From IMG/VR virus record IMGVR_UViG_3300025138_000025, positions 1 to 64,000 of that record: a DNA stretch of 64,000 nt; one strand, written 5' to 3'. The DNA comes from a virus. Position 1 is the stretch's first letter. Each line of letters begins with the position of its first letter. The notes beneath the pieces were generated by a model. It ran no database searches and was not told where the DNA came from. It saw only the letters and a list, made by a program, of their open reading frames with translations. Below, in pieces: positions 19,808 through 26,060 of the stretch. Made by a program: the position numbers and the translations under genes.

Positions 19808-20072
19808 AATGACCTATCAGCAAATAAGAAATCGAGATAAAATCAAAACATGGTTATCAGTCAACGCTGATAACCTTGTTATGTGGCTTGGGATTTGCTT
19901 TGTATTCTTAGGACTACAGGGAATATATCCAATCGAGCAAGATATAGGAATAACATCAATAACGATTGGCAACATTGCAATATTCATTTCAGCAATCTAT
20001 AAGGAAAATGTAGAACTTGCTGTGATAACTATTGTTATGGTTGTCGCTCAAATATCACAGGTGCTTTTATGA
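19791..20072 (+). CDS. Small membrane protein
   Basis: Three hydrophobic segments. Confidence 0.55.
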   Translation: MREGFKMTYQQIRNRDKIKTWLSVNADNLVMWLGICFVFLGLQGIYPIEQDIGITSITIGNIAIFISAIYKENVELAVITIVMVVAQISQVLL

Positions 20073-20617
20073 ACTTGTTAAAAAATGAATGTGGGGCGAA
20101 CATAGAGAGGTTTTATAATCTCACGCCTACTATCTATATTTATGATATTGATGGAACGATAGTTAATTCAAGTCATAGGCATTTATCAAATGCTGATGGC
20201 TCGATTAACTTAAACGCATGGAGAGAAAACTCAACAAGGGAATTGATACAGCATGACGATTTAATGCCTTTATCAGTTCAATGCAATCAGCACTATAAAA
20301 ATGGCAATATGGTAATTTTATGTACTGCTGATGTTATCCCTGTTGGGGGTGCTAGATATGAATGGCTTATATCTAATGGCATTTTATTCGATAGGTTGAT
20401 ATCAAGACCTGTTGACTGCATGACTGTTGATTTTGTTTTGAAGCAAAACCAATTAGCTTATCTTTATAGGTTAAGAACTTATGCAAAATGCGACAAGGTA
20501 ATGTATGACGATAATACTAATAATCTAATGGCAATCGCTGAATTAGGTAAAAAGTATAATCAGCCTACATACTGTTATGAGCCTTATGAGAACGGGAGTT
20601 TATATCGTGCATATTGA
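20069..20617 (+). CDS. HAD-superfamily phosphatase (PNKP/dmp-like)
   Basis: YDIDGT, ILCTA, K, MYDDN motifs. Confidence 0.8.
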   Translation: MNLLKNECGANIERFYNLTPTIYIYDIDGTIVNSSHRHLSNADGSINLNAWRENSTRELIQHDDLMPLSVQCNQHYKNGNMVILCTADVIPVGGARYEWLISNGILFDRLISRPVDCMTVDFVLKQNQLAYLYRLRTYAKCDKVMYDDNTNNLMAIAELGKKYNQPTYCYEPYENGSLYRAY

Positions 20618-20849: not shown

Positions 20850-21163
20850 ATTTCTAAAAATGATAGTAAGCACTTACTATAAATGATAATCATTCTCATT
20901 TAAAAAAATTCGAAAATTTTTTTATATGCGCCGAAGGCGCCGACCAGTGCAGTAACGAAACGATGTGACGTGGACCTGCGCCGCAGTACAGTACCGAAAC
21001 GATATGTCAGTGTCTACACGAAGCCAACGGCGCCCATTATAACACAAATCTTGGTCGGGGTCAAGGATTATTTTCACTTTTTTGGAAAAACTTTCGGGAC
21101 ATTAGTCTACTTGGGCAGCCCCGCTGCACTGATAGTGAGTACTTACTATCATTTAAAGGCAAT

Positions 21164-21186
21164 AAAAAACCCACCGAAGTGGGTTT
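21164..21186 (-). terminator. Intrinsic terminator (UUCG hairpin)
   Basis: AAACCCAC-TTCG-GTGGGTTT plus T-run on the minus strand. Confidence 0.75.
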
Positions 21187-21200
21187 CGACTTTTGTCACT

Positions 21201-21368
21201 TTAGCTGAAGAGTTTTGCTAAGCGGACGATTGTCTCTTTGTTTGCTCTTTCTAAAGAGTTTAGAGTACCGACATCTGTTCCGATTTGCTCTTCTAAAGCA
21301 CGCACTAATGCGACTTTGGTTGGTTCTGCTTTTTTAGCGACTTTTGTTTGTTTTGCTTTTTCCATCAT
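21201..21368 (-). CDS. Small protein resembling the A2 C-terminal domain (55 aa, not in the ORF track)
   Basis: Own promoter at 21389-21416, AGGAG SD, TKVALVRALEEQIG...LNSLERANKETIVRL, and a terminator. Confidence 0.7.
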   Translation of the reverse strand: MMEKAKQTKVAKKAEPTKVALVRALEEQIGTDVGTLNSLERANKETIVRLAKLFS

Positions 21369-22045
21369 TTTCTCCTAAATATGGGTATATTATAGGCGCT
21401 TTGACTAGAAAGTCAATAGGTAAAGTGAAAATAAATCAATTATTTTAAGGAACTTTTGTCGACTTTGGCAAATCGCGCCGATTTTATCACACTCTGGGAG
21501 ACTTGTCAATAGTTTTTTCAAAAATATCGCCAGAAATTATATTCTTACGAGTCTAGTTGGCGAAAATTTGCACAAACCCACTAGAATGGGCACTTCAGAG
21601 ACGAAAAACAGCGTAAGACCCCGTAGCGGGGGCGCCGAAGTGCCAAAACGAAGTGCGAAAACGACGGTGCATGCGCCGAAGTGCTAAAACGAAGTACAAA
21701 AACGATGTTTTTACGAGCTAATCCTATTTTAACACACTTTGGCGGGGTTGTCAATAGATATTTTGCGTTTTTTGGGGAAATTTGGGGAAACCCCGAGCAG
21801 GTTTCGCGTCCCGGCCCCCGAAGTAACTTGTGTTTATTTGCAAATAATTCACTGTAACTATTGACAAACCTAATCAATGCGCTTATAATATATATATTAT
21901 GAAAAAAGATAAAGAGATAACCCAAGACTACTTCGCAAAACAATCAATTGCAGCAAAGTTTTTTTGGAAAGTTATTGACATTCTTGATGACATTGAGTAT
22001 AATATACTTATAAACAAAAACAAACCAACATTAAAGGGCAAAATT

Positions 22046-22360
22046 ATGGCAACAACAGTAAAAAATTACACAGATGAAATGGTCGCATCAATGGTAGAAG
22101 CTTACACAGCAGAACCAACAAGAGAGACTGTAGACTCATTAGCACAAGAGTTAGGCAAAACTACAAGAAGTATCATTGCTAAACTTTCAAGAGAGGGCGT
22201 GTACCAAGCACAACCGAGAACAACTAAATCTGGAGAGCCTGTAGTATCAAAAGCAGAACTCGTCAGTGCAATTGCTTCTCACTTCGACATTGAAGTACCG
22301 ACTCTAGTGAAAGCAGGTAAGCAAGACCTACAGAAATTAGTCGACGCAATCAATTCCTAA
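22046..22360 (+). CDS. T5 A2-like DNA-binding protein
   Basis: NYTDE..EAY..LAQELGKTTRSIIAKLSREGVY..SKAELV; promoters at 21861-21889 and 21975-22003. Confidence 0.7.
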   Translation: MATTVKNYTDEMVASMVEAYTAEPTRETVDSLAQELGKTTRSIIAKLSREGVYQAQPRTTKSGEPVVSKAELVSAIASHFDIEVPTLVKAGKQDLQKLVDAINS

Positions 22361-22463
22361 TGGAACTCGCAGGAATGGTGGGGTTCGTAATCGGACTTCA
22401 CCTCCTAATGAGATTTATTGAGTGGAGTAGTCACCTATAGACTGGAGTGATGACCTAATCATC

Positions 22464-22591
22464 ACATTTTAAAGTGGGAACACGAAAGCAGGAAGTGACT
22501 ACGGAAGCACACCTAAAAGGGAAGTAGCAAGTTCGACTCTTGTCCTAACTTTCGGAAGGTTCATTCGAATTGAACTCCCACCTTAAAATGT
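22464..22591 (+). ncRNA. Candidate tRNA-like structured RNA with two T-loop hairpins
   Basis: 16-bp closing stem; GCAAG-TTCGACT-CTTGT and GTTCA-TTCGAAT-TGAAC. Confidence 0.5.
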
Positions 22592-22623
22592 ACAAAGTTT
22601 TTCAAGATTTTCCTAAATATTTC

Positions 22624-22652
22624 TTGACAAATGGTAAGAAAGTCTGTATAAT
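22624..22652 (+). promoter_or_regulatory. Promoter TTGACA-17-TATAAT (near-duplicate of 22804-22832)
   Basis: Perfect consensus hexamers. Confidence 0.85.
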
Positions 22653-22803
22653 ATACTTATATTCAGAAAAAGAGAAGGGAAATGGAAATAAGGGCAACTT
22701 GCAAAGCAATCCTGATTAACCTGACCGACTCTAAGTGGATGCAACCCCGTTGGGATTGAGTCAAAGTTTTAACTACCAAGTAGTAAATAAACCAAAATTC
22801 TTC

Positions 22804-22832
22804 TTGACAAATGGTTAGAAAGTGGATATAAT
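22804..22832 (+). promoter_or_regulatory. Promoter TTGACA-17-TATAAT driving the large ncRNA candidate
   Basis: Perfect consensus hexamers. Confidence 0.88.
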
Positions 22833-22838
22833 ATATAT

Positions 22839-23936
22839 TCAGAAACAAAAAATAGACGACATTGAAATACAGGCAAAAATTAATGATTGAGCTGTGACCT
22901 CCTCGGAGTGAGCCAATAAATAAACCTTCAAAGTCGTACCTCTCGACAGTGGCAGTTCAACGAGATTAAAAAATGCAAACGAGACATTGCCTGCTGCATC
23001 GCAAGTATAGTCTAAAACAAGGGAAGCGAGCCGGCAGTACAATATGTGCCGAAGGGACGGAGAGACGCAGTATTCAATAATTCTACTGTAAGCCACGCCA
23101 TGCGATTCAGCTTTAGCTGTCAAGTGGAGAGTAGGATTACCTAAGAATGTAGTGATAAGCAGTATTGCAGTTACCACCATTGAGTGCTGAACTGAACAGC
23201 GAGAGCATATCGTTAAAACGGAAAGGACAGCATAGTCGTAAGAGTAATTCCTAAACAAGACTTTTCGACAGGTGATTGAGGCGTAGATACATCCATAATA
23301 TCTCGTAGACGAAGCACTATATCGTCTTTAATTATCAGTAGTAAGTGGGCAAGGTGTCTATTCGAGAGACACCACGCTAACCTGCGGTGTAGACCAACCA
23401 ATTGCATGATGACGATTGTTGAAACGGACTTCGGTCGTATAGTAAACAATTAGCAGTGCCGTCGAGTAGGAGTCGCCACATACAGTAGAGGAAAACGCTT
23501 CGGCGTAACGCCTTGAAGAGTGGAATAACGACACATAATCGAATGTATGGTAGAGTTGACGGGGGCAGTTAGCAACTTTAATCAGTGTGCGAGTGATGAG
23601 AAGAAAGGCAGTAGCTCTGTCAAACACAGGAGCAATCTTTGTGTATATCTCTCACCGACAAGTAATGTGAGCATATTAATTATTAGCGAGTAGCAGTATC
23701 GTCTAAAAGTGGGAAGAAACAGCATCTTCGGATGGGGGCTTCAATGTAAGTCCGACATGGAATAGAAAGCCAAACTCTGCACAGAGTGAGTGAGTAATCC
23801 TTAAGTCTCTACACTTCTAGCAGTAAGACTACCATCGCAAGTGCGAGGAGACTAATTACCTCTCGTGCGACACTCAAAAACCAATCTATTGATGAGTTTT
23901 TAGGGCAGTTGAATTAACTTTCATCTGCCTTTTTTT
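22839..23936 (+). ncRNA. Candidate large (~1.1 kb) ornate non-coding RNA
   Basis: Promoter-to-terminator unit with no plus-strand ORF of 60 aa or more; higher GC than flanks; C(UUCG)G hairpins, repeated loop-E AGUA/GAA motifs, possible long-range pairing. Confidence 0.72.
23902..23936 (+). terminator. Intrinsic terminator
   Basis: AGGGCAGTTGAA...TTCATCTGCCT followed by a T-run. Confidence 0.8.
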
Positions 23937-24049
23937 ATTCCCACCAAAACATAACATCAAAATTCCAAACATAATTAAATATAGTTCTTGACAAACAGGT
24001 CAAACATCTGTATAATATACTTATATTTAAAAAAGGAGAGATTAAAATT

Positions 24050-24442
24050 ATGATGTGGCAAGAATTATCAAATTGGGAAGACAATCATAACTCGATAGTG
24101 TTCGGAGTTATGAGTACAGAAGATGTGCGAGAGTCACTTTCATACTGGAACGCCTTCGAAAAAGACGAAGATGAGTTCATTTGCGACATCAATGATGTAA
24201 GTGAGAGACTTATTATGGCAAGTATGAAGTATGCTTACAACACAATCGACGAACCAACATACAACTATATGCTAGAGGTTATCTACGACCACTTAGTAGA
24301 CACACTAAAAGAACGCATCAAAGATGCAGTAGACCAACAGCGACCACATAATATTACTAAAGGTAATTTATGGAACAGCGAAACAAAAGAGTTTGATAAG
24401 GTCAGTGACTTTATGAGACAGAGACAAACAGAATTATTTTAA
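24050..24442 (+). CDS. Hypothetical early protein
   Basis: Promoter at 23988-24016 and AAGGAG SD. Confidence 0.7.
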   Translation: MMWQELSNWEDNHNSIVFGVMSTEDVRESLSYWNAFEKDEDEFICDINDVSERLIMASMKYAYNTIDEPTYNYMLEVIYDHLVDTLKERIKDAVDQQRPHNITKGNLWNSETKEFDKVSDFMRQRQTELF

Positions 24443-24452
24443 GGAGAGCGTA

Positions 24453-24677
24453 ATGCCAACAAAATTCAAACAATCAGAAAAAGTGTTTAAGCGTGGAGTG
24501 AAAGCGTCTAAACTAAAAGACAAGCACTTCTATATCAAAGATGTGAACAAGGACGAACTGTTCAAGTGCATTAATGAAGATAGAACAAAGCCAAAGCAAA
24601 GACAAAAGTGTCTAAATGAGTTGGCGAGACGAGGCATCCAAATTAACTGGGTAGAGCCAAGTGAGGTGACGACATGA
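24453..24677 (+). CDS. Hypothetical early protein
   Basis: AAGGAG SD. Confidence 0.65.
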   Translation: MPTKFKQSEKVFKRGVKASKLKDKHFYIKDVNKDELFKCINEDRTKPKQRQKCLNELARRGIQINWVEPSEVTT

Positions 24678-24811
24678 GATGGGGTGGAAAGACACAACAC
24701 ATTAGTGTAAAAAAGAAAACATCACAAGGCGATAGCCACAACAGAGTGAGTCTTAACATGAACAAGAACAAAAAGCGTTCATTCAAGAAGTACAAAGGTC
24801 AGGGCAGATAA
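24674..24811 (+). CDS. Small basic protein (not in the ORF track)
   Basis: GAGGTG SD; KKTSQG...NKNKKRSFKKYKGQGR. Confidence 0.65.
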   Translation: MRWGGKTQHISVKKKTSQGDSHNRVSLNMNKNKKRSFKKYKGQGR

Positions 24812-25100
24812 TGTTCGGATTCGAAGTATATTTTCTAATCGCAGTGCTGCTATTCATAGTGGCACTCAACTTACCAAGGTGGTGGTAATATGGGTAAAGT
24901 AATACAATTTCCTACAGTAACGGAAGCAAAGAAACTTCGTGATGCACTACAAGAGTGCGAACACGAAATAAAGTTGTGCCTAAATGATTTGGCAGAACTA
25001 AACGATATGGTCGTAGACCTCACAATGGAGTATGAAATCATGCTTAATAGATTGTGTGAATTAAATGGCATTAGATTGCCAGAGGAGTTAAAGTTAGAAG

Positions 25101-25379
25101 ATGATTAAAGGTAGTATGATGTATGACCAGCATGGTCGTAAGCGTAAAGTAAAGAAACTATACGCAAGTAAGAAAGCGACACCTAATTTCGCTAAACAAG
25201 AAACAAAAACATTTAAGAGTACGAAGGACATCCCTAGTATGCCGATTGGAGAATACAAGACACCAACGGACAACTCTTACAAACAAGAAGTATCAAAGCA
25301 ATATACGGTATCAGTTGCTTATAATAAAGGTGCATATCAAGTGATACCAAGACAAGAGGTAAAAGACATTGGCAAATAA
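25101..25379 (+). CDS. Hypothetical phage protein
   Basis: YTVSVAYNKGAYQVI motif. Confidence 0.65.
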   Translation: MIKGSMMYDQHGRKRKVKKLYASKKATPNFAKQETKTFKSTKDIPSMPIGEYKTPTDNSYKQEVSKQYTVSVAYNKGAYQVIPRQEVKDIGK

Positions 25380-25625
25380 ATACAATAGACATTACGCAGT
25401 AGGTATGTGGGCGAATGGAAGTAAGATAACAAACATACAGTATCCAAGTGATACTAAACAAGCGTGGCAGGGAGAATGTCCTGCTAGAAACACGATACAT
25501 ATGTTCGTGAAGTTAGAAAATGGTACAGTTCTTCGAGATGACGAATTGATACTAGACAGAAAGAAGTGGGAAGCACTTCAGGATATGGAGAAGTTCATAT
25601 CCGATATAAGTGAAGGAGTGGCGTA

Positions 25626-26060
25626 ATGAGTAAGATAAACGACTATGCAAAGTTTGTAGACCAGTGCACATCCGAAACAAGTAAAGATACTACTAAAATG
25701 TGCGATAGACTAGACAAACTAATGGGAAACCACACTATGCAGAATGGAGTAATGATTGACTGTGAAATAGACATGGCAAGACTAATGACTGCACTTATAG
25801 GCATGATGGCTGAGAGTGGAGAGTTTGCTGAAGTAGTGAAGAAAAAAGTATTCCAAAACAACACACAGTTCACAAACGACGAGATTTTTCACATGAAAAG
25901 AGAGTTAGGAGATGTGTTGTGGTATTGGGTACAGGGATGCAAAGCCCTTGGCTTTACCCCCGAAGAAGTGATGGACGAGAACATCAGAAAACTAGAGAAG
26001 CGTTATCCTAATGGCTTCGAGGTAATTAGAAGTGAAGTAAGACAGGAAGGTGACATATGA
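25626..26060 (+). CDS. MazG-like NTP pyrophosphohydrolase
   Basis: ESGEFAEVVKK, RELGDVLWY, NIRKLEKRYP. Confidence 0.88.
   Translation: MSKINDYAKFVDQCTSETSKDTTKMCDRLDKLMGNHTMQNGVMIDCEIDMARLMTALIGMMAESGEFAEVVKKKVFQNNTQFTNDEIFHMKRELGDVLWYWVQGCKALGFTPEEVMDENIRKLEKRYPNGFEVIRSEVRQEGDI

Follow-up and report, generated by a model that had tools for sequence, protein, structure and literature searches.

Positions 22839 to 23936 of an 88,165-nucleotide (nt) IMG/VR virus record (IMGVR_UViG_3300025138_000025), the first 64 kb of which were analyzed here (the window), form an intergenic stretch on the plus strand that is headed by a consensus promoter and closed by an intrinsic terminator. The terminase and DNA polymerase of the record were ~50% and ~46% identical, respectively, to proteins of T5-like phages (of Pectobacterium, Vibrio, Aeromonas, and others). 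An earlier note, made from the sequence alone, had taken the stretch for a large ornate non-coding RNA, of the GOLLD/ROOL class or new, delimited by a promoter and a terminator of its own. The reading as a new RNA of this kind, carried by a marine T5-like phage, was supported by tests for coding potential, by conservation of base pairs, by RNA depth, and by the terminase and polymerase identities. The stretch is considered, with a probability of about 0.9 or above that it is a real structured RNA gene, to encode a large ornate non-coding RNA of ~1.0 to 1.1 kb. The explanation as a whole was held slightly less firmly, as highly probable, with the scaffold or decoy role within it put at well under even odds. 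The unit had the features of the class "large ornate structured non-coding RNA" (>500 nt, many helices with compensatory changes, no open reading frame [ORF], and its own transcription signals), which is an operational class and not a homology family. Uncultured marine T5-like phages keep this RNA gene at one place in the early region. The sequence strings named in the earlier note were all found where it had placed them.

The promoter of the RNA gene (P2) matched the sigma-70 consensus at 12 of 12 positions, in agreement with the earlier description of it as perfect, and was among 14 perfect TTGACA-N17-TATAAT sites in the window (0.01 expected). A promoter of this type headed all 87 full units described below, and a tandem promoter 109 to 190 nt upstream was kept by relatives in several groups. 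Between this upstream promoter (P1) and P2, the leader strings CCCGTTGGGA and TACCAAGTAGTAAATAAA were conserved across groups. One metatranscriptomic contig (run X18) began at 22649 and continued into the RNA unit, and transcription from P1 may give some of the RNA a longer 5′ end. An ORF of 25 amino acids (aa) between P1 and P2 was rejected as a gene, as it was present in 2 of the 16 loci compared (the window and L011). At the other end, the terminator proposed at 23902 to 23936 was upheld: the stem (23903-23908/23925-23930) and U7 tail were invariant in 19 relatives, its inner pairs covaried, and RNA depth fell across it. A simple terminator scan did not list 23902-23936 because the loop exceeds the limit of that scan.

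The longest plus-strand ORFs within the unit measured 35, 32, and 48 aa, consistent with the claimed absence of any ORF of 60 aa or more. Each plus frame contained 20 to 29 stops with all three stop kinds represented, so no single stop reassignment opens a frame, and recoding of the plus strand was excluded on these grounds. None of nine syntenic units, at loci found through their proteins, had a plus frame open for >80 aa. Minus-strand ORFs of 139, 78, and 89 aa overlapped the unit; they matched no Pfam or PHROG family, and 17, 17, and 16 of the 18 relatives, respectively, carried interrupted versions, mostly because of indels whose length was not divisible by three. In the longest minus-strand ORF, the first, second, and third codon positions had 469, 464, and 464 substitutions, with no third-position bias. 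The earlier note had named homologs that conserve minus-strand codons in place of base pairs as evidence that would speak against an RNA; the reverse was found, with base pairs conserved and ORFs broken. Neither strand behaved as a protein-coding gene. A tandem repeat RNA (CRISPR-like or ToxI-like) was also considered and rejected, with no tandem array found in the unit.

Use of the two flanking proteins as queries returned 13 and 23 viral contigs. In close relatives the whole intergenic stretch aligned at 80 to 91%, and in distant relatives the same place held a unit of 973 to 1,292 nt between consensus promoters that was only ~45% alike. Extraction from 186 viral and metagenome records yielded 87 distinct full units, each running from promoter to promoter and measuring 740 to 1,621 nt, which fell into 13 sequence groups. 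Hairpin-size insertions, deletions, and replacements distinguished relatives throughout the unit. Searches with nhmmer from the window's group reached the other groups weakly, and at the 9-mer level the only words common to at least 8 of the 13 groups were those of a 20-nt hairpin, referred to here as M1. Thirty-five viral contigs carried the M1 string, as did at least 119 metagenome stretches, which included TARA and many coastal samples. With blastn, none of 50,697 phage records matched the RNA unit, and a 38-nt query around M1 gave nine chance matches to these records (E = 6, at most 58% of the query covered). As far as seen, the RNA is confined to T5-like marine phages. Among 185,579 species genomes, M1 occurred in two contigs only, both metagenome-assembled (L186 and L187), which were rejected as evidence of a host; the genomes are labelled Nitrospira and Bdellovibrionales, and the contigs are probably mis-binned phage contigs.

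Covariation among homologs, which the earlier note had proposed as a check, was found in two groups that share little sequence. An alignment of 19 window-group sequences (A2, 18 distinct) gave an RNAalifold consensus of 184 pairs, with 98.3% of cells forming standard pairs. Of these pairs, 53 changed on both sides, compared to 21.4 ± 3.2 in column shuffles (0 of 500 shuffles reached 53) and to 7 to 12 when partners were slid by one to three columns. The 20 sequences of the second group (A5) gave 170 pairs, with 50 changed on both sides, compared to 27.1 ± 2.8 in shuffles and 1 to 7 when slid. These structures were predicted on the same alignments on which the changes were counted, and a test across groups was added. 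A covariance model (R1) built from the window-group domain 23345-23577 was searched in 75 loci from the remaining groups, of which 21 matched at E < 0.001. Among these matches, the hairpin that follows GGGCAAGG had changed on both sides in five of its six pairs, and the long-range helix 23376-23385/23565-23573, invariant in the window group, had changed in seven of nine pairs.

Taken together with the sequence alignments, the predicted fold of the window group comprises ~30 helices, two conserved loop-E modules, and a long-range helix that closes the 3′ core domain. The fold probably also contains two pseudoknots, picked by scanning for covarying stacks: in the first candidate (23220-23223 with 23248-23251) three of four pairs changed on both sides with 100% of cells paired, and in the second (23317-23320 with 23338-23341) two of four pairs did so. 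The A2 alignment contained 294 G·U cells against 17 A·C cells, and its reverse complement folded worse (−104.5 versus −122.9 kcal/mol), which together indicate the plus strand. Two other long-range pairings fared less well. The pairing of TAGACGA at 22853 with TCGTCTA at 23699, suggested in the earlier note, was dropped, since the 5′ partner was not kept in relatives and TCGTCTA takes part in another covarying helix. The predicted pairing of TGACCT (22895-22900) with GGGCA (23347-23351) did not covary. An alternative pairing of 23116-23120, the 3′ half of M1, with ACAGC at 23719-23723 covaried in two of five pairs in a single lineage (L018/L019).

By contig depth, the RNA appears to accumulate far above neighboring mRNAs in ocean metatranscriptomes. 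In six metatranscriptome runs from five studies, 74 to 89% of the sampled words of 22600-24100 were present, and four runs from four studies were compared over 21000-26000. Contig depth over 22837-23838 was 652 to 1,151 in run X15, 17 to 67 in X16, 24 to 68 in X18, and 158 to 165 in X20, compared to 0 to 7.4 over 24006-26000 in all four runs and 0 to 45 upstream of 22670. Across the terminator, depth in X15 fell from 652 to 63 and then to 3. Contaminating DNA would give flat cover, and the unit is therefore present as RNA far above its neighbors. Adapter letters were joined to contig ends at 22892 (X15), 23828 (X16), and 23872 (X20), which hint at a processed 5′ end at 22892 and a trimmed 3′ end near 23828 or 23872; a stable species may run from ~22892 to ~23872, without the A-rich leader and the terminator hairpins. 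One X16 contig (depth 74) ran from 22849 directly on to 23100, so that 250 nt of the variable 5′ domain were left out; this joint could reflect a co-occurring strain with another 5′ domain or an assembly effect.

Several observations weigh against a structured RNA gene with the proposed role. The folding energy of the single sequence was no better than that of shuffled sequences (z = +1.40 for the plus strand and +1.16 for the minus strand), and the single-sequence folds of the two strands differed little (−278.8 versus −272.6 kcal/mol); the case for structure rests on covariation and not on stability. The covariation controls themselves were generous, as structures were taken from the alignments being counted, the sequences were related, and the pseudoknots were chosen by a scan. 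The RNA evidence consists of contigs, each with one depth figure and without strand or true ends, from runs chosen because they contain the 22600-24100 stretch. The conserved flanking genes had no RNA-binding domain or family in Pfam and PHROG scans. M1 was missing in L018/L019, L025, and L026, and the R1 core model found nothing in L021, L025, or L026; with each missing from some loci, neither element is strictly required.

Table 1. Features of the RNA gene and its flanks, from 5′ to 3′, in window positions.
Feature	Position	Strand	Remarks
Upstream tandem promoter P1	22624..22652	+	Perfect TTGACA-N17-TATAAT, ~180 nt ahead of P2
P1-to-P2 leader, non-coding	22659..22803	+	Conserved CCCGTTGGG hairpin at 22746-22754; A/T-rich stretch before P2
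Promoter P2 of the RNA gene	22804..22832	+	TTGACA 22804-22809, TATAAT 22827-22832
Primary transcript	22839..23936	+	Start predicted; end at the terminator U-tail
A-rich 5′ leader and variable 5′ domain	22839..22985	+	Hairpins swapped between relatives; hairpin-size indels
M1 domain	23065..23171	+	Helices 23065-23074/23161-23171 (outer), 23088-23091/23137-23140, 23098-23100/23125-23127
M1, 20-nt hairpin GATTCAGCTTTAGCTGTCAA	23104..23123	+	Stem CAGC/GCTG, loop TTTA, UU bulge
Most conserved block of the window group	23177..23345	+	Near-invariant, 0.92 identity; both pseudoknot candidates
Helices of the 23177-23345 block	23184-23188/23224-23228, 23199-23202/23210-23213, 23235-23245/23260-23269, 23281-23287/23301-23306, 23307-23312/23322-23327	+	
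Core 3′ domain	23345..23577	+	GGGCAAGG, hairpin 23353-23358/23368-23373, long-range helix around the loop-E arms
Long-range helix closing the core	GCTAACCTGC 23376-23385 with GCAGTTAGC 23565-23573	+	Closing strands GCUAACCUGC/GCAGUUAGC
Loop-E (bulged-G type) hairpin	23414..23451	+	GATTGTT/AACAATT; internal loop GAA/TAGTA; apical GAC-TTCG-GTC
Second loop-E arm	23462..23542	+	TCGAGTA/TAATCGA, TCG/CGA, CCAC/GTGG, AGTA 23484-23487; variable apical hairpin 23488-23516
Variable region	23578..23685	+	GCAA-capped hairpin 23624-23644; absent or replaced in several relatives; 0.60-0.73 identity
3′ domain	23686..23838	+	Long helix 23686-23711/23812-23838, 19 pairs, several changed on both sides
Inner hairpins of the 3′ domain	23736-23740/23749-23753, 23787-23790/23800-23803	+	
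Hairpin GTGCGAGGAG/CTCTCGTGC	23841..23868	+	Four of nine pairs change on both sides
Hairpin and intrinsic terminator	23876..23936	+	Hairpin 23876-23886/23891-23901; terminator stem 23903-23908/23925-23930 with U7; both stems invariant
Promoter of the next gene (24050-24442)	23988..24016	+	Perfect TTGACA-N17-TATAAT; bounds the RNA unit

Conservation varied strongly along the unit (Table 1), and the A-rich leader and 5′ domain were the least conserved part (0.62 to 0.77 identity per 50 nt). In the M1 domain, six of nine pairs of the outer helix and two of four pairs of helix 23088/23137 changed on both sides. The GGTGTCT (23353) and AGACACC (23367) strings of the core 3′ domain were confirmed. 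Both loop-E arms anticipated from the sequence were borne out by invariant internal loops between covarying helices. In the first arm, with ATTGTTGAA at 23415, AGTAAACAAT at 23441, and GACTTCGGTC at 23427-23436, five of seven basal pairs changed on both sides, and GAA (23421-23423) and TAGTA (23440-23444) never varied; in the second, AGTA (23484-23487) was invariant, the flanking helices covaried, and the apical hairpin was replaced or deleted in relatives. The other UUCG hairpin strings were ACGCTTCGGCGT at 23495-23506 and CATCTTCGGATG at 23723-23734. All of these UUCG hairpins had been singled out earlier and are present as strings, although the TTCG count was not beyond chance (5 versus 3.18 expected, reached in 405 of 2,000 shuffles). 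The variable region contained CAAGTAATGTGAGCA, which other groups place directly after M1. Short direct repeats occurred in the same order in 23220-23254 and 23712-23804 (GGAAAGGACAGCAT/GGAAGAAACAGCAT, then GAGTAATTCCTAA/GAGTAATCCTTAA), and these shared repeats hint at an old internal domain duplication.

M1 was identical letter for letter in groups otherwise ~45% alike, as found by nhmmer; a compensatory change in its stem (C to T and G to A) was present in L022. Its place relative to the core differed among units: in the window, M1 preceded the core by 220 nt; in L023, the distance was ~30 nt; and in L048, L161, and L164, the closing helix of the core enclosed M1. A second module, AGUAGGGCAAG-N-CCCACGC/AGUAGUAGGGCAAGUCCCACGC, also appeared at varying positions in closely related RNAs, even inside terminator loops. 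The AGUAGUAGGGCAAGUCCCACGC module was found in the terminator loops of L054, L062, and L163, in L056, L070, L150, L152, and L178, and internally in L059, L080, and L114, as if it were a movable structural cassette. The GUGGGCAAGG...CCACGC core of the window looks like the same module with a hairpin inserted. The hexamer GCAGTA, for which six copies had been reported, did occur six times (0.56 expected), and GCAGT occurred 11 times (1.71 expected), counts that 0 of 2,000 dinucleotide shuffles reached. This excess was limited to the window group, with one to two copies in the eight units of other groups that were counted. AGUA was enriched over dinucleotide shuffles (z ≥ 2) in 10 of 13 group representatives, which fits the presence of many bulged-G or loop-E modules.

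The comparison with known families proposed in the earlier note was run, and none matched the unit. All 4,227 models of Rfam 15 gave no match in the 64-kb window at the gathering score, including those for OLE, HEARO, raiA, group I and II introns, RNase P, tmRNA, 6S, IMES, and rRNA. In a scan of 22500-24100 at E values up to 10, the only match inside 22839-23936 was a chance match to a region of a human long non-coding RNA (E = 1.2, 14 bits versus 48 needed), and 17 loci of other groups yielded only tRNAs at the gathering score. Membership in GOLLD (RF02032; gathering score, 150 bits) and in ROOL (RF03087; gathering score, 99.1 bits) was rejected, as neither model matched anywhere in the 88,165-nt genome at E up to 10; for ROOL, the positive control of the dedicated search matched in no control genome, and the scans with all of Rfam carry the weight. 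The earlier proposal of a GOLLD/ROOL-class or new large RNA therefore stands in its second part and not in its first. By sequence comparison, the RNA is a new family, unrelated to the entries of Rfam 15, within the known kind of large ornate phage RNAs. No description of such an RNA was found in the literature searched; the supplement of PMC10690425, which presents 10,006 candidate structured RNAs from IMG/VR and lay outside that search, may list fragments of it.

GOLLD and ROOL nonetheless offer the closest points of comparison discussed here. According to a preprint (bioRxiv 10.1101/2024.12.08.627333), both are encoded by phages and prophages, they assemble into cages of 14 and 8 copies, respectively, through kissing loops and A-minor contacts, and they are set in tRNA islands. 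Like GOLLD, the RNA described here is large, ornate, and phage encoded, has marine members, and combines a conserved with a variable part; the high expression of GOLLD during infection reported in the same preprint (bioRxiv 10.1101/2024.12.08.627333) can be likened to its high depth. Unlike GOLLD, it does not lie beside tRNA genes. ARAGORN found none in the 64-kb window or in the whole 88-kb genome, and in several relatives clusters of two to four tRNAs stand 3 to 4 kb from the RNA gene. T5-like phages usually carry many tRNAs. With ROOL, described as a large structured phage or prophage RNA with pseudoknots and no known protein partner (bioRxiv 10.1101/2024.12.08.627333), it shares that general character; it is about twice as long as the ROOL model (574 positions), and its architecture differs.

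For function, the reading tentatively preferred, at well under even odds, is that the abundant RNA would act in trans, as we infer, as a modular scaffold or decoy, with M1 holding a specific partner. The small conserved core and the near-invariant M1 would hold this partner, a host or phage protein or RNA, and the periphery would be free to gain, lose, and swap hairpins. M1 would be read by its sequence rather than its shape and would work at any site in the fold. In flexible-scaffold RNAs, of which yeast telomerase RNA is an example, the core is small and conserved, the arms evolve fast, and binding modules still work when moved. The three different places of M1 relative to the core helix recall that RNA, a resemblance of evolutionary pattern only, and the partner and associated enzyme of telomerase RNA have no known counterpart for the phage RNA. 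The invariance of M1 at the sequence level, stem letters included, suggests recognition by a partner over a purely architectural role, and its positional freedom together with the swapping of peripheral hairpins fits a flexible scaffold or decoy better than a rigid catalytic fold. Sequences have diverged quickly from group to group while size, place, and expression level stayed fixed, a pattern that fits an arms race with the host.

An assembly made of RNA only, a homo-oligomeric cage or network as in GOLLD and ROOL in place of a protein-holding scaffold, is suggested by analogy and is considered unlikely. In type of molecule and in setting, the RNA resembles the cage-forming RNAs of the preprint (bioRxiv 10.1101/2024.12.08.627333), it has a variable half and a conserved half as GOLLD does, and its 11 GCAGU copies could, by inspection, self-pair (G·U, C-G, A·A, G-C, U·G). 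That motif, however, is in excess in the window group alone, the loop palindromes inspected in A2 included no conserved self-complementary loop, and there was no match in sequence or structure to GOLLD or ROOL. A bolder reading, to which a still smaller chance is given, would make the RNA an arms-race weapon: an early flood of RNA would soak up or wall off a host factor (a defense nuclease, RNase, RNA chaperone, or the ribosome) as a multivalent cage or condensate, its body knit by the self-pairing GCAGU copies of the window group and many loop-E modules, with M1 as bait or latch. If true, this would explain together why the RNA is so extremely abundant, why lineages swap modules so rapidly, and why the gene keeps its size and position. 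A ribozyme, in which the conserved core with its pseudoknots would form a catalytic center for self-processing or for action on host RNA, appears improbable. The near-invariant 170-nt block with two pseudoknot candidates would suit a catalytic center, and the adapter-joined contig ends could be processing sites, but the block is specific to the window group (nhmmer and the core model miss it elsewhere), sequences turn over from group to group far more quickly than those of known large ribozymes, and no Rfam ribozyme or intron model matched at E up to 10. The rest of the probability beyond scaffold or decoy, RNA-only assembly, and ribozyme goes to a mechanism not yet thought of. The view that the stretch is not an RNA gene at all, and instead holds decayed or fast-evolving small protein genes (the minus-strand ORFs included), a DNA-level element, or a long untranslated leader, could draw on those ORFs and on the unremarkable folding energy; it is largely refuted and retains very little credence, given that the ORFs are broken in nearly all relatives without third-position bias, that compensatory changes keep G·U pairs on the plus strand only, and that the unit has its own terminator, a separate promoter for the next gene, and a drop in RNA depth of at least 20-fold at the terminator.

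To our knowledge, RNAs of this size and intricacy of fold are very rare in bacteria and phages, with GOLLD, ROOL, and OLE as the few known cases. These have only recently been seen in unprecedented RNA-only assemblies. A new, unrelated family would add an independent system in which to ask how such RNAs serve a virus. Four features help here: the RNA is ~1 kb in length, is widespread in the surface ocean, is carried by lytic T5-like phages, and was, in four metatranscriptome studies, one of the most abundant transcripts of phage origin (by contig depth, in runs chosen for this stretch). Its modular build, in which the conserved core is tiny, the invariant hairpin can move, and the arms can be exchanged, makes a search for the partner and work on the structure directly testable.

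Other elements lie upstream of the RNA gene. A tRNA-like element occupies 22464-22591, just upstream, where ARAGORN calls no tRNA, and 22502-22606 gave a weak Rfam match to a Y RNA-like family (YrlA; E = 2.8, 16.9 bits versus 69 needed). A polynucleotide kinase-like gene at 20069-20617 (PHROG 415, E = 6e-16) precedes the RNA gene by 2.2 kb; polynucleotide kinases serve RNA repair in other phages.

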